Origin: Camelus ferus
Lineage: Eukaryota
Assembly: GCF_009834535.1 (NCBI RefSeq)
Contig: NC_045696.1
Coordinates: 39,310,001-39,374,000 of the forward strand
Reading direction: 5' to 3'
Length of the DNA: 64,000 nucleotides
A model generated the notes under the pieces. It was not told where the DNA came from and ran no database searches. It was given only the letters and a program-made list of their open reading frames with translations. Of the stretch, positions 41,301-52,415 are shown in pieces (positions within the stretch are counted from its first letter, which is position 1; each line of letters starts with the position of its first letter). The position numbers and the translations under genes are program-made.

Positions 41301-43830
41301 TGATCCTGAATGTTTCGAGGGGATGCCTACTGTCTTCCTGTTGCTCTTTGGATACACTTGAGAATCTTGACCCTGGACCACAAGGCCCTGTGATATCTGA
41401 CCCCTCACTCCCGTTCTAGCTTCACTTACCACCACTATCCTCCAGGGTGGAGCCTGGATAGGGCAGTGGTGGCCATTGTTGGCTGCTACTCAAGTGGTGC
41501 CTCAGAAGACATCCAGATCTCTTATGGTGACTGTCCTGCTACAACTAATCTCTAAACATACCCTAGAGTCAATACTGGGCCTCCCTAGGAGGTCCAGAAA
41601 AAGAGTGGGAACAGGGTGAAGGCAGTGATCAGCTGTAAGAGGCAAAGGGGATTCGTATCTAAGGCTGTGTCTGAGCAGAGTCAAAGACTCCTATACAGGC
41701 AGTGCACTGAACTGTGTACAGAAACCACCTGCTTTAGTCCTCTGCTTCTCTAGAGCAAAGGACCTGGTGTGGGGAGAGGGAAAACACACACTTAAAAGGA
41801 ATGCAGCCAGCTCAAACACAATCCTCAGGGCTTCTGCTCCAGCAACTTGTAATTAGACCCTGCCCCTAACATAGTGGTGACAACCACCAACACCTCACAA
41901 CAAGCACCAGCTCTAGACTCTCCAGCTACAGCCTCACCCCCATCAAGGTGATAGCTGCCAGGACACCGTCAGGAAAGACGTCACTGGTATCCATGTCAAG
42001 CCCAGTTCTCCCACCTAATGCACTGGGCACACACAGTCTGTATACAGACACTCCTACACCTGAACCCCAATGTTCATAGCAGCACTATTTACAATAGCCG
42101 ACACATGGAAACAGCATAAATGTCCATCAATAGGTGACTGCATAAAGAAGATGTGGTATACTTATACAATGGAATACTATTCAGCCATAAAAACCGACAA
42201 CATAACGCCATTTGCAGCAACATGTATGTCCCTGGAGAATGTTATTCTAAGTGAAGTAAGCCAGAAAGGGAAAGGAAAATACCATATGAGATCGCTCATA
42301 TATGGAATCTAAAAACAAACAAACAAACAAACATAAATACAAAACAGAAATAGACTCATAGACATAGAATACACACTTGTGGTTGCCAAGGGGGTGGGGG
42401 ATGGGAAGGGACAGACTGGGATTTCAAACTTGTAGATACTGACAGGCATAAGCAGAATAGATAAATAAGATTATACTGTATAGAACTGGGAAATATATAC
42501 AAGATCTTGTTGTAGCTCACAGTGGGAAAAAAATGTGACAATGAATATATGTATGTTCATGCATAACTGAAAAATTGTGCTCTACACTGGAATTTGACAC
42601 AACATTGAAAAATGACTGTAACTCAATTCAAAAATGTTAAATAAATAAATAAATAAATTTACCAAATAAAAAATTCAAAAATATGTAATAAAATTACAAA
42701 TATAAACTGAATTAGGAAAAAGAATTGATCTAAAAACTGAACATTTTAACAAGGATCTGGAAAATATGTTTTAAAAAGATGCAATCAACAGTAATTCACT
42801 AGCGGATATTAAAAAACACACTAGAAGGAATGAATAGTAGACAAACTGATATAGAAGAACACATAAGTGATCTGGAAAACACAATAATAAAAATCAACCA
42901 ATCAGAACAGCAGAAAGAAAAACAAATTTAAAAATAAAAACAATTTAAGAGCTCTTTCAGGTAATATCAAGTGTTCCAATATTTGCATTATAGGGGTTAT
43001 AGGAGAAGAAAAAGAGAAGAGATCAAAAATATATTTGAAGGAATTATGTCTGAAAACTGTCCTAAGCTGAAGAAGCAAACAGATACCCACGTACAGGAAG
43101 CACAGAAACTTCAAAACAAGATGAACGCAAACAGACCTACACCAAGTCTTATCATAATTAAAATGGCGAAAGAGAAAGAGAAAATTCTAAAGGCACCAAG
43201 AGAAAAACAGTCATATAGTAGGGAATCCCCATAAGGTCATCAGCTGATTTCCCTGAAGAAACTTTGCAGGCCAGAAGTGAGTGGCATGATATATTCAAAG
43301 CACTAAAAGGGGAAAGCCTGCAGTGTAAGATACTCTACCCAGCAAGATTATCATTTAGAACGAGAGATAAAGAACTTCCCAAACAAAAACTAAAGAATTT
43401 ACCAATACTAAATCTACAGGGAAGAAATGTTGAAGCCTCTTCTCTAAATGGAAAAGAAGAAAGAACCTATAGGAAAGGGAAAAACCCCACAAGGAAAGGG
43501 AAATACATACTAAGGACAGTGGATCAACAAATTGAATACGCCACTATGTAGATTAAAACACCAAAAAAATTGTAAAATAAATTATAACTAAAATTAAGAG
43601 ATAAGCATGAAGATGTAAAATATAACATCAATACCACAAATTGTCACGGGGAGTAAAAAGTGTAGATCATTTAGAATGTGTATGAACTGAAATGATAAGT
43701 AGTTTAAAAGAGTAAGGTATAAGACAGGTCAACGTTTATGAACCCCAGGGTAGCCACTCATCAAAACCCCACAATAGATACGCAAAAACCGAAAAGAAAA
43801 AAAGCATACTGCTAAATGAAACAATAAAAC

Positions 43831-44240
43831 TGGTACGGAAACAACAGGCCAGCCAAGAAACAAGCACCACTTGGAGGGTTGGAGTACTCAGATTTATTAT
43901 GCCAGCAGGCTCAGAGGGGCTTCTACTCTGAAGCTCTGAGCACCTCCAAGACGTGTGCATAAAGCTTTATAGGGTTAATTACAAGCTTGGGGTATTCGGC
44001 CAATAGGCATGGAATAGCTTTAGCAGCATCATTATCACAAAAGTAGAGGCAGGGAGGCAGCAAACCAACATTTCAAGGCCAGATATGTCTCTTTGAAAAT
44101 CCAGCTGGTTAGCAAAAACAAACAAAACAAAACAAAACAAAACAAAACAAAAAACCATGAGCAGTGAATCAGCAAACCAACACTTGTTATACTTAGATTT
44201 ACGAGTTAGCTTCTTAGCTGAGCTTGTCTTTTCCTTCTCA
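43831..44240 (-). repeat. ERV 3' LTR (410 bp)
   Basis: Aligns end to end with 52420-52806. The length difference is almost all due to an internal (CAAAA)n expansion. Preceded by the PPT. Confidence 0.96.
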
Positions 44241-45948: not shown

Positions 45949-48900
45949 TCAAGCTTCGGCCATGCGTTGACTAGCCAGCTTCCAGGTGTGGCTAGAGCAG
46001 GTCTCATCAATCCTTCTCTGGCCCCTCTTGATATTGATCTTGAGCAAGTCTCCTGGGACGCTCTCAATTTTCTAGGGACTCTCTGTCTGTGGTGAAGTCG
46101 CTCTCTTAACCCTGGAGTGGTGGATCCAAGGGATGATTCTTGCAACTTTAACAGCTGTAGGGGTAGTTAATACCACTAAATATGGTCCCTTCCATGTTGG
46201 TTTCAGAGGTTCCTTTTCCCAGTCCTTCACCCATATTTGGTCACCTGGTTTATGGGGATGGACTTGGACTCCTAATGAAATGGGGGTTCTCTCTATTACC
46301 CAATCCCAAATTTCCCATAGTACTTGTCCTAGTCCCAACAGTTGTTGGTGGAGCCCTAAATTTCCTATCTCCAGGGTGGGATTTCCCATCCTGACTAAAG
46401 GTGGTGGTGAAAACTAAAGGTGAAACCCATAGAGGATTTCAAAGGGAGAGTACCCAATATTAAATCTTGGGGTGCATCTAATTCACAACAGAGCCAGGGG
46501 TAAAATGTCCACCCAGGGGAGCTGGGTTTCCTGGCTGATTTTAGCTATCATTTATTTTTAGATTTCTGTTCATTCATTCTACCTTCCCTGAGCTTTGAGG
46601 CTGGTATGCTGTGTGTAGGTTCCAGTGGATGCTCAGTGTCTTTGCAACTTGCTGTACAATTTCTGCCACGAAGGCGGGTCCATTGTCGGACCCGCTGGAG
46701 GTAGGCATTCCAGACCGAAGGATGACATCCCTGAGGAGAGCCTTTGTCACCTCCCTTGCTTTCTCTGTCCTGGTGGGGTAGGCTTCTACCCACCCTGTGA
46801 AGGTGCAGACAAAAACCAGCAGGTACTTATATCCCTTACTGGGCCCAAGTTCAGTAAAGTCCACTTCTAAATCTTCAAAGGGAGCCAATCCACATCGTCG
46901 TATTCCCGTTGGCCCAGTGGGCCCTTGTTTTGGATTGTTTTGAGCACAGAGCAAGCAGCGTTGGGAGACTGATGCACACAGAGTAGGGAGACGAGAAATC
47001 AGGAAATACCGCTTCAGCAGGGCCTACAAAGCCGTTTTTCCCATATGTGTGGCTTCGTGTTGTTGTTGTACTATGCGATAAGCTAGTCGTTCTGGGATGA
47101 AAACCCTTCCATCCATTATGATCCACCATCCATCCTTTCCTTTCTTCCCTTGTTCGGCCTGTGCCCACTTGTTTTCATCGTGGCTATATTCTGGGGCAGT
47201 GGGTAGCTCTGTTGTTGCCATAATTTTCATTACTGGGTGTTTCTGGGTGGCTGCCTCTCTTGCCTTTTGATCAGCCAGCCTGTTCCCCTGGCTCACAGGG
47301 TCATTTCCTTTTTGGTGTCCCTTACAGTGAATAACAGCCACTTCCTTTGGATCCCATACTGCCTCCAGTAACTGTAAAATTTCTTCTTTGTTTTTGATTT
47401 CCTTTCCCCCAGCAGTCAAAAGTCCTCTCTCCTTATAGACGGCTCCATGTACATGCAAGGTTGCAAATGCTTATTTGGAATCAGTGTATATATTGACTCA
47501 TTTTCCTTTCCCTTCCCTTAGTGCCTGGACCAGTGCCCAGATCTCTGCTCGCTGAGCAGACCATCCTGGGGGAAGGGACTCTGCCTTTATTACCTCTTGG
47601 GTTGTTGTTACAGCATAACCTGCTTGCCATTGTTCATCCTGCACATAACTGCTGCTGTCTGTGAAAAGTTCCAGGTCTGGGTTTTGCAGGGGCTTGTCGG
47701 TTAGATCAGGCCTGCTCACGTACACTTCTTCGATGATTTCTTTGCAGTCGTGGTCAGGCCACCCTTCCCTCTCAGGCAAATATGTGGCTGGGTTTAAGGT
47801 TCACAGTCTCTAGACGGACTCTTGGATTTTCACATAGAAGCCCCTGGTAGTGGGTCATTCTTGTGTTAGTTATCCATTTGTAACCTGGGCTGTTCATCAG
47901 GGCCACCACAGAATGGGGCACTTTTACATTTAAAGTCTGTCCCAGGGTGAGTCTGTCTGCCTTGTTGACCAGGGAGTCTGTGGCAGCGAGGGCCCGTAGA
48001 CAGGGTGGCCATACTGATGCTACAGGGTCCAGTCTTTTAGACAAGTAGGCCACAGGGCGCTGCCACGGCCCCACATTCTGAGTCAGGACTCCGAGAGCGG
48101 TTTGGTCTCTTTCATGCACAAACAGGTTAAACTCTCGCGTTACATCTGGTAAGCCTAGTGCTGGGGCTTGGGTGAGCGGTTCCTTTAATTGCCTAAAGGC
48201 ATTTTCTTGTTCAGTTTCCCATTTGAGGGTTTCCTTTCCTGATCCAGCAGTTGCTTTGTAGAGGGGCTTGGCTATTCTTGAAAACCTGGGGATCCAGATC
48301 TGGCAAAACCCAGCTGCGCCCAGGAACTCTCGCAGTTTCCTTTTTGTTTCTGGTCTGGGTATGGCGCAAATAACTTGTTTTCACTCTGGTCCTAGGGCTC
48401 GGTGTCCCTCTGAGATAATAAATCCCAGGTATTTGACTGTCTTTTTGCAGATCTGGGCCTTTTTCCACGAGACCTTGTACCCAGTTGTTTAGAGTAACCC
48501 TAGGAGGGCTCAAGTTCCTCTCCAACAGTCCTCTTCACTGGGGCTGGCTAACAGCAAGTCATCCACATACTGGAGCAGAGTACAGTTCAATGTCTCCCCA
48601 GGGAATTTTACAAGGTCTGCAGCTAGTGCCTCTCCGAACAAGGTGGGCGAGTTTTTAAAGCCTTGGGGGAGACATGTCCATGTCAGTTGAGTTTTCTCTC
48701 CTGTATGGGGATTCTCCCATTCAAATGCGAATATGGGCTGGCTCACAGGTAAGAGTCAAAGACAGAAGAAAGCGTCTTTAAGGTCTAGGCATGTAAACCA
48801 TTTGGCGCCTGCTGGAATGAGGCCTAGAAGAGTGTATGGATTTGGCACTGCTGGATGTATTGTAGTGACTAGTTCACTTACTTTTCGTAAGTCCTGAACT

Positions 48901-49562
48901 GGCCTATAATCTATTCCTTCAGCTTTCTTCACCGGGAGCAACGATGTGTTTCAAAGAGATCTGCACTTGGTTAGGATTCCCTCTTGTCAGAGGCGCTGTA
49001 TGTGCTTCTCGATTCCTAGGTGAGCCTCTTGAGGCATGGGATATTGCTTCTGTCTGACCGGGCTGGCTCCAGGATTGAGGTCAATCACCAGTGGTGCCTG
49101 ATTATGTGCCAAGCCTGGCGGCCCATTCTCAGCCCAGACTAATGGAAACTCTTCCAGGAGTTTGTTAGGATTTTCCTGGAGTTCTCTACTCTCATATAGA
49201 TGCTATTCTTCTTCTCGGGGAACTGAGACGGCTAGAATCATAGCTTCTCCCCTTAGGGTCAGATGTGCCTGTTTCCCGGGGACGAAGGTAATTTGTGCTC
49301 CCAATTTAGATAGAAGGTCTCTTCCGAGCAATGGTATCAGGCATTCAGGCAAGTATAAAAATTCATGTGTCACTAGATGGCCCCCTACTTGACAGAATCG
49401 TAGCTGGCAGAAATGGCAGGCAGTCGAGTCCCCAGTAGCCCCTATAATAGTCGCCTTTTTCTTGGTCATGGGGTCTATACTCTGCTTCTGTGTCCATAAA
49501 AGTCATTGGTTGGCCCCCTATCAACATTTTGACCTTGGGCTTCTGGGGGAGCCTGGTCTCTC
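45949..49562 (-). pseudogene. pol: ERV pro-pol (protease, RT, RNase H, integrase), disrupted
   Basis: Protease [33 protein letters not shown] and LQYVDDLLL; RNase H LFTDSSS...SAQRAE; integrase HEATH, VDFTE, SDNGPAFV and WKGPY. The IN frame continues through a TAG (46072-46074) to ...CSSHTWKLASQRMAEA* at 45949. Confidence 0.95.
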
Positions 49563-51139
49563 CTATTCTGAATCAACCCTAGCCAATCTGATGCAATTAC
49601 TAGTGGCTCCAGCTGATAAGGAGGCCTTTTGCGGGGGGCTGTCTTCCCATCCTCTCTGTTTGGGCACCCATTCTTCCAGTGTCCTGTCTCCCGGCAATAT
49701 GCACATCGATCTCCACCCAGAGGCACCCATGGTCGGGGTCCCCTCTTCCGGTGGGGGGTGCAGGATTCTGGCTGAAGCCTGTTTTCCCCAGGGCTGCTGC
49801 AAGGAGTGTGGCTTTCTGCTTCACTTCGCTGGTCTGCTTCTCGTTGGGCTTCCCGTTCTCAGTTTACAAAAACTTTGTTTGCTACTTCCAGCAGCTGTGT
49901 AGCGTTCATCCCTGCTGAATCCATCCAGTTTCTAGAGTTTCCAGCATATATCTGGGCACAATTGGGCCACGAAGGCAGTGTTGGCCATCCGCTGGTTTTC
50001 TTGGGCCTCAGGGAGTGTAGACTCGGAATGCTTCACATAGTCTCTCATAGAACTCAGTGGGGGTTTCGTCTGGCCTCTGTCACCATGTTCGTTTTAGACA
50101 TGTTAGGTGTCTTCTTGGCTCCTGCTCTTAGCCCTTATAGTATGGCCTCCCAGTACTCATGCAGTGCTTCTCTTCCTTCTTGGGTGTTAAAGTCCCAATC
50201 TGGTCTAATGTCAGGGGCCCGTGACATGGCCAACCCCTCAACATCCACTGTGTCCCCGGGGGCTCGGCCCTGCAGCCATTTTCGTGCTTCAGTGAGAATG
50301 CGTCCTCTCCTCCTGTATTGAAAAGAGTCAGAAGCAGCTGGCAGACATCTTCCCAGGTGGGCCGGTGAGAATGGAAGATAGACTCTACGAGGTCAATCAT
50401 AGCCTGCGGCTTCTCAGAGTAGGAAGGAGTGTGATGGCTCCAATTGAGAAGGTCTGTGGTGCTAAAAGGTTGGTAGTAGAGTACAGGGTGCCCGGGCTGA
50501 ACAGTCCCGTCTTCCCCAACTTGCTGCGGCCCTTGTGTCTCCTGCAGCGGCATTTGGAGGGCCGGCGGTGCTGGTCTCCCGGCTTGTGCTGAGCGGAGTC
50601 TCCTTCCTACAGGCTCAGGCTGGGGGCTGGGCTCTGCCTCTGGGTCCTCAGGTTGGGGAGGTGGTGACCCAGAGGGTGGCGGTGTCTCCAGTGGGACCAG
50701 AGGTGTCGGTGCCCCAGGCGTACACTGGAGGGGGCAGGCACATCTTGTCCTCTGTGTCTCCCTGGAAAATAGGCTTTTCTCTATCTGTCTTTTTGGCCTG
50801 GACCGGCTTAGCTGCTAATAACTTGCATTGTCCAGGTCCATTTGAGCAGAACCAAATCCATGGGGGTAGAGTCTGGGCAGTATTCAGCCAGGAGTCAATG
50901 TAAGGGAATTGATCTGGGTGGCCTGGGGTTCCAGTGATTATTTGATAGACTGCTCGCACTGTTGCTAGGTCCAGAGTTCCTCCTGAGGGCCACCTGACTC
51001 CAAAGGTCAGCCATTCAAGCTCACAAAAAGTGCGAATCCTGCCAGGGGTCATTCAAACTCTATAGTCTCCTGAGAATCCCTTTTTGAAATCCTTAATCAT
51101 GCAGCCTAGGGTGGTGGGTTTTGACTTCGAGCCTCCCAT
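49563..51139 (-). pseudogene. gag: ERV gag (MA-CA-NC), disrupted
   Basis: Starts MGGSKSKPTTLGCMIKDFKKGFSGDYRV*MTPGRIRTFCELEW (myristoylation-type MG start). CA contains YYQPFSTTDLLNWSHHTPSYSEKPQ, and there is a single CCHC knuckle CAYCRETGHWKNGC. Ends at TAG 49563-49565 followed by G, a gamma-type readthrough junction. Confidence 0.93.
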
Positions 51140-51152
51140 TCTGTCTAGATGT

Positions 51153-51658
51153 TTAAGGATAATAGATCTGTTGCTTTGGGTGTTTGGGAAGGTAGCCTTT
51201 ATATCTTTTCCTTCTTCACTCTTCAAAACAGCAGAGTTCCCAGAAAGACCACTCTCTTGCTGGGTCTATTAGTTGTTTGAAGGTTAATTTCATCAGGGAG
51301 TCTGGGTTCCAGTCACAGCTGATGTCTCTGGAGCTCAAGGCCTCAAGCAGTTCCAGAGGCTTCCTCACTAAATCCCTCTCTACATCCTGAACTAATGTAC
51401 CAAGGGCGTGGGAGAAGTCCTGACAGCAAAACAAATGGACTAGAAAGGGGACCTCCAAGGCCGGGTGAGCCCAGTCCTGAAGAAATTCATCTTCTAAACT
51501 CAAATCCTGGGGGTCTGAGGCTAGGCAAAAGGGGCACTCCTTGGGTCAGTTCAGTAGGGGAACAATAAGTCTTGGGTGTTCTGTGACAGAGCCAAGTAGG
51601 AGGCTTTCTCAAAGAAATAGTATTCTAGCCTCTGAGGGCACAGGGGGCATTGACTCAT
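51153..51658 (-). pseudogene. Candidate decayed pre-gag ORF (Cys-rich, unknown function)
   Basis: Manual translation extends the 95-aa ORF-track frame (51216-51503) in both directions across TGA stops. It ends at TAA 51153-51155, 13 nt before the gag ATG. Confidence 0.6.
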
Positions 51659-52186
51659 TGGCTGTTTTACCTCCCTTTCCCTCCCAGTGTAGCCACCCTG
51701 TGCCGGTGTCAGCAGACAAGACAAGGGAGGGTTTTTGCTACATCTGCCTGGCTGCTCCCCTCATGGGGACGAAGGTGCCTCTTAGCTTTGGTGGGTCAGT
51801 ATAAGCCACTGACTCTGATCGGGACCCTGAGGGACCGATACCACCCTGAGCCGTATGAGGTCACCATGGAACCTGCAGGTTGGGACTCACTCGAACTCTG
51901 TAGCAGAATTCCATGGAGCTACAAACTCGAGCCTGATCTCATGCTTCACAGGCTGCACATTCATTCACACACACAAACACACACACACACACACACAGAG
52001 GTTAACAACAGTCCTCCCACCAATCCCAATATCCTGTTTCCTGTAGGAGGGGATCAGCCTCTTCTTTTGTCCACTGGGACAGGACCTGATTTCCCCATCT
52101 TGAATACCGTCAGACAGGAAGCCTGTGGGAGGGGATCAGCCTCCTCTTCTGTCCACTGGGACAGGACCTGATTTCTCCCCAGGGGT

Positions 52187-52195
52187 TCCTACCTT
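52187..52195 (-). promoter_or_regulatory. Candidate ERV major splice donor
   Basis: AAG|GTAGGA on the minus strand, ~200 nt after the PBS and upstream of all viral ORFs. Confidence 0.5.
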
Positions 52196-52397
52196 GTCCA
52201 GATGAACACCTGGTGAGTCTGTCCCTCCACCGAGTCTGGCTCTGGTTGTAGCCCAGCCACCCAAGGGGGGCCAAGTCGACGTCACAAAAGAGAACCCAGA
52301 ATACCGTCGGGCGGCACAACTTCGTTTGCTGCCGGAGTCCTGTCTCCCGGTTGGTCAGAGCCACGAGCCCAGCGGTTCAAGGGGCTGGCATGGTTGA

Positions 52398-52415
52398 CTC
52401 TTGCTGGGGCCTCCA
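52398..52415 (-). promoter_or_regulatory. Primer binding site, tRNA-Thr(TGT)-like
   Basis: Minus strand TGGAGGCCCCAGCAAGAG, 4 nt after the 5' LTR. It matches 16/18 to the complement of the mammalian tRNA-Thr(TGT) 3' end as recalled (TGGAGGCCCCAGCGAGAT). Confidence 0.85.

Follow-up and report, generated by a model that had tools for sequence, protein, structure and literature searches.

The pre-gag frame in the window copy

The stretch of DNA analyzed here, hereafter the window, comprises 64,000 nt of the Camelus ferus genome (assembly GCF_009834535.1, contig NC_045696.1, positions 39,310,001 to 39,374,000) and carries a gammaretrovirus-like provirus of ~9 kb on its minus strand. Between the leader of this endogenous retrovirus (ERV) and gag lies a broken reading frame, hereafter the pre-gag frame. 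Comparison with related copies indicates that this frame is very probably the decayed copy of a real ancestral coding gene, which lay upstream of gag in a gammaretrovirus-like ERV clade. The features needed for the comparison are as follows (window positions).

51659-52012, minus strand: upstream leader block U, the non-coding control and the best-conserved leader part at depth
51551-51658, minus strand: N-terminal (N) part of the pre-gag frame, with ATG 51656-51658, 35 codons (MSQCPLCPQ...LLFPY) and TGA 51551-51553
51219-51545, minus strand: open frame of 109 codons (PKECPFCL...CCFEE), closed by TGA 51216-51218
51420-51545, minus strand: codons 1-42 of the 109-codon frame, in the ancestral frame and containing the conserved CPFC
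51360-51419, minus strand: codons 43-62 of the 109-codon frame, open in the window and outside the ancestral frame
51219-51359, minus strand: codons 63-109 of the 109-codon frame, the predicted helical part, in the ancestral frame
51153-51218, minus strand: TGA at a Trp-type codon, basic tail of 20 codons (RRKRYKGY...IYYP) and TAA
51137-51139, minus strand: gag start codon (MGGSKSKP) in strong context

An earlier sequence-only reading of this DNA had translated the minus strand from the ATG at 51658 through internal stops to a TAA 13 nt before the gag ATG, and this translation was reproduced exactly. The terminal TAA occupies 51153-51155, and 13 nt separate it from the gag ATG at 51139. The alternative ATG at 51650, followed by two in-frame TGAs, is also present. 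The TGA that closes the N part (51551-51553) sits past a one-base length change typical of the A family, the group of copies to which the window belongs. The single frame shift that had been thought to restore the reading is insufficient, because two more one-base differences leave ~20 residues (51360-51419) out of frame. Near codon 42 of the 109-codon frame, 63 of the 70 other aligned copies are one base longer than the window. Near codon 62 the window has one extra base relative to 19 of the 25 copies that do not belong to the main subfamily of the A family, and 43 of that subfamily's 45 copies have it as well. Since these two length differences cancel each other, the 109-codon frame is open in the window with ~20 non-ancestral residues inside it. 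The window copy is therefore broken in four ways, by the frame change between the N part and what follows, the two cancelling one-base differences and the TGA before the tail. It is the comparison with other copies that lifts the pre-gag frame above chance.

Selection on the frame and its loss among related copies

Our searches of the camel's own genome found the pre-gag block in at least 150 places. A 548-nt stretch gave 40 scored matches at 86-93% identity among 96 candidates, and the 109-amino-acid (aa) translation gave 149 matches, including many weaker ones at 35-45% aa identity. Among the translation matches, the 109-codon frame is open at only two places, the window and a copy with 93% identity to it. 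All 10 divergent loci inspected have a homologue of the block immediately 5' of gag, and their Gag protein is 47-78% identical to that of the window. We fetched 77 loci and placed two translated anchors, the conserved leader and the gag start; seven loci (L009, L018, L052, L063, L065, L070 and L073) were dropped for a missing anchor, and the remaining 70 with the window gave 71 aligned copies. Three alignments were made, of the leader U (354 nt), of the pre-gag block P (from its ATG to gag) and of gag G (first 600 nt). Grouping by distance to the window yielded six lineages, all from one genome, which are listed here with their distances in the pre-gag block (dP) and in gag (dG).

A family: 49 copies, of which 4 are near the window (A0) and 45 form the main subfamily
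A': 4 copies, dP 0.20-0.24, dG 0.10-0.13
B: 2 copies, dP 0.27-0.28, dG 0.17-0.18
C: 8 copies, dP 0.39-0.42, dG 0.33-0.41
D: 8 copies, dP 0.43-0.45

The lineage C copies L013, L016, L074 and L075, together with further matches, are clustered within 250 kb of one contig (C27, ~24.63-24.88 Mb). This cluster shares lesions and resembles segmental duplicates of one insertion.

Selection was assessed by segment and along the whole frame. In the segment test, synonymous and non-synonymous differences were counted by the Nei-Gojobori method on the nucleotide alignment, with the codon phase set by window position. The resulting ratio of non-synonymous to synonymous divergence (dN/dS) is 0.24-0.44 in frame and 0.8-2.2 in shifted frames for codons 1-42 of the 109-aa frame, and 0.27-0.47 in frame and 0.6-1.8 shifted for codons 63-109. 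For codons 43-62, low values appear at phase +2 (0.25-0.47), and the window's own phase gives 1.0-1.5. The N part shows ratios of 0.25-0.46 in most contrasts. A simpler count of mismatches by codon phase had given a clear signal for codons 1-42 only and was superseded once the frame path was resolved. On the resolved path, one reading of ~160 codons, lineages were compared by the proportions of non-synonymous and synonymous differences (pN/pS).

A0 against A': pN/pS 0.37 (interval 0.27-0.51)
A0 and A' against B: 0.50
A0, A' and B against C: 0.40
A0, A' and B against D: 0.48
C against D: 0.52
Five pairs of single copies, pre-gag path: 0.33-0.60
Two shifted paths: 0.85-1.07
gag, matching pairs: 0.47-0.77
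Upstream leader U, six frames: 0.67-1.02
Phase of a 180-aa antisense frame: 0.73-0.75

The confidence intervals of the in-frame values exclude both 1 and the shifted-frame values. Codon-level conservation between divergent lineages, on which the sequence-only reading depended, is thus present, with pN/pS of 0.37-0.52 as against ~0.9-1.0 out of frame. The selection signal is specific to the block, the strand and the frame, and about as strong as that on gag MA/p12. Decay after insertion can only have lowered it. The U block, the control in the same leader, differs from the window by a p-distance of 0.20-0.28 in lineage C, compared with 0.33-0.41 in gag.

Stops are also distributed unevenly among the frames. 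Per 100 codon columns there are 2.28 stops on the path, compared with 7.54 and 4.48 in the two shifted paths, and the density on the path is close to that of gag in the same copies (path/gag: A0 1.25/1.54, A' 1.27/2.30, B 2.24/1.81, C 1.94/1.40). The proposal that the internal TGA stops arose from CGA and TGG codons is borne out: 139 of the 253 in-path stops are TGA, and most stops fall at columns where other copies hold CGA (82 of 253) or TGG (75). Several columns show a mixture of Arg, stop and Gln within a single lineage, which is the mark of CpG decay after insertion. A' and B are in frame with each other throughout, and the stops in both are polymorphic. The frame was therefore under purifying selection while the viruses split into at least six lineages, and suffered mostly CpG-type decay after insertion.

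Other lesions are older than individual insertions. Common to the whole A family are the frame change that separates the N part from the remainder and the TGA before the tail (4/4 in A0 and 44/44 in the main subfamily), where A' has a sense codon. In the main subfamily, one base is lost at codons 4-5 in 43 of 45 copies, and a frame change near codon 62 follows. Seven of the eight aligned lineage C copies have a frame change that is absent from the eighth, L069, and from L009. Eight main-subfamily copies (L029, L034, L037, L039, L040, L042, L043 and L050) also carry a deletion that fuses gag at about codon 116 to the reverse-transcriptase region.

Several observations weigh against a coding gene. 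The open 109-codon frame is weak evidence by itself, given a longer antisense frame of 180 aa in the leader. No aligned copy among the 71 holds a single frame along the whole path, and none of 150 matches to the read-through of L009 (its one TGA written as X) covers its length without a stop. The phase signal of the N part and of the tail is weaker or ambiguous in some contrasts. Lineage-fixed insertions and deletions are multiples of three in 3 of 13 cases in P, 2 of 14 in U and 6 of 11 in gag, so that several sampled lineage ancestors were already broken. One genome supplies all lineages and the C27 copies may be segmental duplicates, which makes the pairs non-independent. Nine ATGs precede the pre-gag ATG in the window leader, and simple cap-dependent scanning is doubtful for that reason. 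The sequence-only reading had named retained stops in the family as a point against itself, and such stops are present: three are common to the 45 copies of the main subfamily (43/45, 40/45 and 44/44), beside the one-base changes, and one is common to 8/8 copies of lineage D. The shared lesions in the main subfamily indicate that the progenitor of most family copies had lost the working gene already, and those in the main subfamily and D together indicate that the element spread well without it. Because these lesions are common to all copies of the main subfamily and of D, the gene was lost repeatedly in lines that were still multiplying in the germline.

The block also has a history of its own. 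Five aligned D copies have an A-like leader and gag (dG 0.10-0.15) despite a dP of 0.43-0.45, and in eight mosaic loci (L017, L018, L064, L066, L068, L070, L071 and L073) a block of the D type stands between a leader and a gag that have 81-90% identity with the window. In blastn alignments of these eight loci, the edges of the foreign block fall at window positions 51635-51639 and 51140/51104, that is, from just past the pre-gag ATG to the gag ATG. Since the edges coincide with both ends of the frame, the block was exchanged between lineages as a unit. Its synonymous divergence is two- to threefold that of gag when matching pairs of copies are compared (for example, A0 against A' gives a dS of 0.54 compared with 0.18). 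Most copies keep a spacing of 568-598 nt between the leader anchor and gag, though the p-distance of the block reaches 0.45.

Gene boundaries, provirus structure and RNA

The start of the pre-gag frame is present in all lineages; of the 57 copies that have the ATG, 52 show it in a weak context (C at -3, A at +4). The gag ATG, kept in 66 of 71 copies, is strong in context in 62 of 68 (A at -3, G at +4) and opens a Gag N-terminus with a myristoylation-type MGxxxS start. The terminal stop of the pre-gag frame is found in 59 of 71 copies, and in 59 of the 61 having that column, 10 copies being deleted or partial there. The spacer between this stop and gag measures 13 nt in 39 copies, 16 nt in seven and 19 nt in seven, which always places gag in the same other frame and excludes a glyco-Gag of the murine leukemia virus (MLV) type, as the sequence-only reading had stated. 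In two loci, L014 (3072-3560) and L010, the pre-gag frame continues into gag via apparently private length changes. Between the two starts there are 2.0-5.7 ATG triplets per copy, compared with 6.9-7.9 in shuffled sequences. This scarcity would fit leaky scanning to gag, and the stop 13 nt ahead of the gag ATG would fit reinitiation equally well.

The remaining features of the provirus are as follows.

52416/52417-52806, minus strand: 5' long terminal repeat (LTR), a direct repeat of 43828-44240
52398-52415, minus strand: primer-binding site (PBS)-like 18-mer, abutting the LTR end and beginning with TGG
52186-52200, minus strand: splice-donor-like site (CAAG/GTAGGA), ~200 nt past the PBS, read from the sequence
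52040-52178, minus strand: tandem duplication in the leader, 57-nt copies 82 nt apart with 93% identity
44270-51136, minus strand: decayed gag-pol-env with Pfam matches on open pieces, many stops and frame changes
43828-44240, minus strand: 3' LTR, a direct repeat of the 5' LTR

The LTR pair is 93% identical over 300 nt and 86-87% identical in flanking pieces. The 18-mer at 52398-52415 we take to resemble the 3' end of tRNA-Thr, which would match the primer of HERV-T. Measured from this 18-mer to the gag ATG at 51139, the leader is ~1.26 kb long, the length that had been given from the sequence alone. The (GT)n microsatellite at ~51960-52005 lengthens the leader together with the 57-nt duplication, and the duplicated pair also occurs in most family copies, as judged by secondary blastn matches. 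Pfam matches on same-strand open pieces are to Gag_p30, RT_RNaseH_2, rve and TLV_coat; a Gag_MA match came from one family copy and, with Gag_p30, is located downstream of the gag start. On the plus strand, a stop-to-stop frame of 180 aa (51629-52171) runs through the (GT)n tract and exceeds the 109-codon pre-gag frame. We rejected it as coding, since its pN/pS of 0.73-0.75 resembles that of other non-coding frames.

RNA data were compared at 88% likeness, which speaks to the presence of the family rather than to transcription of the window locus. Parts of the family, 51075-51620 among them, are covered by contigs of three RNA-type libraries together with a few single-cell reads, and the shares of words found in RNA runs are small (0.10-0.19). 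One contig from library X3 links a donor-like site at ~52193 to ~45773 upstream of env; its inserted letters match GGACAAG and then continue into new sequence. The joint resembles a spliced env message of a related copy and, as one contig, is a family-level hint. Joints at 51710-51875, 51921-52139 and 52239-52377 have non-canonical ends and resemble copy variants. Among the joints in RNA contigs, none enters or removes the pre-gag block. Contigs of the RNA libraries also show a joint from 48436 to 50785, which matches the gag-to-reverse-transcriptase deletion of the main-subfamily subgroup.

The predicted protein and its place among pre-gag frames

The ancestral protein of ~165-170 aa with its own start and stop, proposed from the sequence alone, is supported as a product of roughly 165-175 codons. 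For the searches we aligned 29 natural in-frame pieces (alignment A1), with stops written as X and no letters added at breaks. Its cysteines are fewer than had been supposed, since only one CxxC and one further Cys are conserved in place of the two CPxC motifs of a putative paired zinc-binding module. The CPFC pair has Cys in 60 and 64 of 71 copies (in D, its first Cys in 1 of 8), while the first CPxC of the window has its first Cys in 2 of 71 copies and its second in 68. An AlphaFold2 model of L009 with A1 gives a predicted local distance difference test (pLDDT) score of ~80 at residues ~75-142, the part homologous to codons 63-109, which forms a helix followed by a long helix. The C-terminal half is thus predicted, with moderate confidence, to be a helical hairpin, and the basic tail follows it, in line with the helical core and basic tail described before. 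The sequence-only reading holds in its essentials, namely an ancestral accessory gene that carries a stop of its own, and was wrong on the two CxxC motifs and the single frame change.

The protein searches add to the points against a gene that are given above. The mean pLDDT of the AlphaFold2 model is 61.8, and the N half lies below 50. Pfam found no family on the three window pieces (E<=10) and, on the 29 rows of A1 (E<=1), four weak single-row matches with a best E of 0.039, none of them common to the rows. A profile search of PDB sequences had no match at E<=10. An exhaustive HMMER profile search of 1.84 billion representative proteins returned three matches, two of which are ERV fragments: one is identical to an A' copy, and the second is a divergent 48-aa fragment (P0002, E 1.5e-8; public assembly) in which the junction of two path segments is read through in one frame, a point in favor of coding. 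The third is a 28-residue stretch inside a 2913-aa protein. Word-based protein searches found nothing for the L009 read-through and nothing for A1 among longer proteins at E<=10, and single pre-gag pieces had no relative in viral or metagenome contigs. In the ESM Atlas, the best score of a 99-aa natural piece was 0.87, to unnamed clusters. Foldseek gave no match at E<=0.001 in BFVD or PDB, and a wide VIA-align search gave generic helical-hairpin matches only (best Z 5.7, residues 77-156). A duplication of Gag MA was considered and rejected, since hhalign of A1 with the family's own Gag MA gave a probability of 0.2%; none of the 29 A1 rows has a Gag_MA Pfam match.

Three other origins of the block have to be weighed against an ancestral pre-gag gene. 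If the block were a non-coding leader spacer, its open frames would be chance products of composition. The longer 180-aa frame on the opposite leader strand, the predominance of lineage-fixed indels that are not multiples of three, the faster nucleotide divergence of the block than of gag and the lack of a homologue or family in the searches all suit this idea. It is nevertheless highly improbable, because in-frame pN/pS is 0.37-0.52 with intervals lying clear of 1 and of the shifted-frame values, pN/pS is 0.67-1.02 for the leader control and the antisense frame, and in-frame stops are two- to three-fold below those of other frames, equal to gag and mainly at CGA- or TGG-type codons. Equally improbable is a fragment of a host gene, or of gag by duplication of MA, captured into the leader: all own-genome matches examined sit in ERV copies beside gag, no cellular protein was found among the 1.84 billion representatives, and the profile comparison with the family's own Gag MA gave the probability of 0.2% noted above. 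The frame might also have been an N-terminal extension of Gag, glyco-Gag-like or fused, with the stop before gag arising secondarily. Such an origin could draw on the entry of the frame into gag in L014 and L010 and on a gag frame that is open for ~40 codons upstream of its own ATG in several copies, and the possibility has been raised for a primate protein (PMC9927554). It is largely refuted, and very unlikely, given the stop in 59 of the 61 copies having the column, the spacer of 13, 16 or 19 nt in 53 copies, the lack of constraint on the gag-frame phase in the tail (ratios 0.56-0.94), and the strong context and myristoylation-type MGxxxS start of the gag ATG.

A further question concerns the identity of the ancestral pre-gag protein. 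HERV30, HERV17 and HERV9 encode a pre-gag protein significantly similar to the poxvirus protein MC132, in primates only (Zhang, Ni and Frith 2023, PMC9927554), and the camel protein could be a distant member of this family (HERV30/HERV17(W)/HERV9), which would make the gene an immune antagonist. MC132 binds the Elongin B/C-Cullin-5 ligase and p65, according to a review (PMC8399815). The two proteins share the site upstream of gag in class I ERVs (PMC9927554), and comparison of A1 with the printed protein by eye gave collinear motifs as a lead: R-x-D-F-F, C-x-x-C, V-[EQ]-A-L (followed, seven residues on, by P-x-R and S-L-x-x-L) and F-N-x-W, with similar spacing in the C half. On the other hand, the HMMER profile search found no poxvirus or primate protein at E<=0.001 among the 1.84 billion representatives, the word-based searches (including longer proteins, E<=10) were empty, Foldseek had no match at E<=0.001 among predicted viral structures, and a rough BLOSUM score of the best ungapped block was at chance for one pair. 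The published homologues are absent from rat, pika and dolphin, and the primate protein has ~290 aa compared with ~170 (PMC9927554). We regard the relationship as possible and rather doubtful. The same holds for the wider proposal that a shortened MC132-like relative acted as an antagonist throughout the radiation, was swapped as a cassette and was lost as the elements settled into germline copying. To date, primate ERVs and a single human poxvirus are the only known sources of MC132-like proteins of this kind. In one form of this proposal, the C-half helix S-L-x-x-L-A-x-x-x-[IL] may, by analogy, be a BC-box-like handle for the Elongin B/C-cullin ligase. For the BC box there is a known consensus, and Vif and MC132 are examples of proteins that use Elongin B/C-cullin ligases. 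When the genome was searched for an Elongin C-type copy without introns (Skp1_POZ), one exon was all that was found.

By position, the window frame belongs to the pre-gag open reading frames (ORFs) of gamma-like (class I) ERVs, a positional class and not a sequence family. Glyco-Gag, another product of the 5' leader, is in frame with gag, has no intervening stop and starts at a CUG. The camel pre-gag frame is unlike it in having an ATG, its own stop and a frame other than that of gag in all lineages. For MLV, for feline leukemia virus and for koala retrovirus, glyco-Gag is described as an accessory product of a weak start that is dispensable for basic replication (PMC6995185). HERV-T has a named 5' pre-gag ORF, polymorphic and frame-shifted among its copies, between leader and gag of a gamma-like class I ERV as in the window (Blanco-Melo et al. 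2017, PMC5388530). Its host is a primate, the portion of that paper available to us holds no selection analysis of the ORF (PMC5388530), and the likeness is positional. Pre-gagV1 of ERV-V (Boso et al. 2021), likewise an ORF immediately upstream of gag in a class I ERV, is described in papers that cite it as a predicted ORF whose evolution suggests function (PMC11905727, PMC12679747, PMC9514029). Pre-gagV1 is a co-opted, intact, placenta-expressed frame at one locus, whereas the camel copies are all broken and their selection dates from the viral phase. The HERV30/HERV17/HERV9 families resemble the camel family in having an extra protein 5' of gag, in the disruption of most copies and in spreading after frame loss (HERV17 there, the main subfamily here). 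HERV17 proliferated after losing the frame, the translation of gag behind the MC132-like frame is a puzzle as it is in the camel family, and the HERV30-type protein has no counterpart in rat, pika or dolphin (PMC9927554). The pre-gag region of HERV-W and HERV-H is up to 2 kb long, stems in part from the pol of another ERV and has been proposed to be an intron (Grandi et al. 2020, PMC6995185). It shares with the window a long leader that contains a putative ORF, which is general in gamma-like ERVs; unlike the HERV-W and HERV-H regions, the camel block has a measured coding selection, and no splice joint removing or entering it was seen in the RNA contigs.

Taken together, the ancestral gene very probably lay on the genomic RNA between the conserved leader and gag. 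It had a weak-context ATG and ~165-175 codons in a frame different from that of gag, and its TAA preceded the gag ATG, which has a strong context, by 13-19 nt. Leaky scanning beyond the weak start and across a region with few ATGs, or reinitiation once the close-lying stop was passed, would have brought ribosomes to gag. The product would have been small and non-structural, with cysteines in its N half, a helical hairpin in its C half and a tail of basic character. The analogy to glyco-Gag and to the MC132-like protein of primate ERVs suggests a role in the exogenous virus, most probably in countering a host factor, and copying within the germline would not have needed the gene. We put forward this function, an accessory protein of the exogenous virus that was dispensable for germline spread, tentatively.

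The published work on pre-gag frames that we found, with subscription journals outside the scope, concerns primate and human ERVs only, and most reports on primate class I elements rest on reconstructed consensus sequences or single co-opted loci. Here the argument depends on frame-specific purifying selection across six lineages of a non-primate genome, measured on natural copies with gag and leader controls. In textbooks, simple gammaretroviruses have gag, pol and env only, glyco-Gag apart. On this evidence the pre-gag gene looks like a genuine, recurring component of the genomes of ancient gammaretroviruses and not like a curiosity of annotation. If the relationship to MC132 were true, a radiation of gamma-like retroviruses outside the primates would have carried an antagonist of a host factor before gag, as a cassette swapped between lineages.

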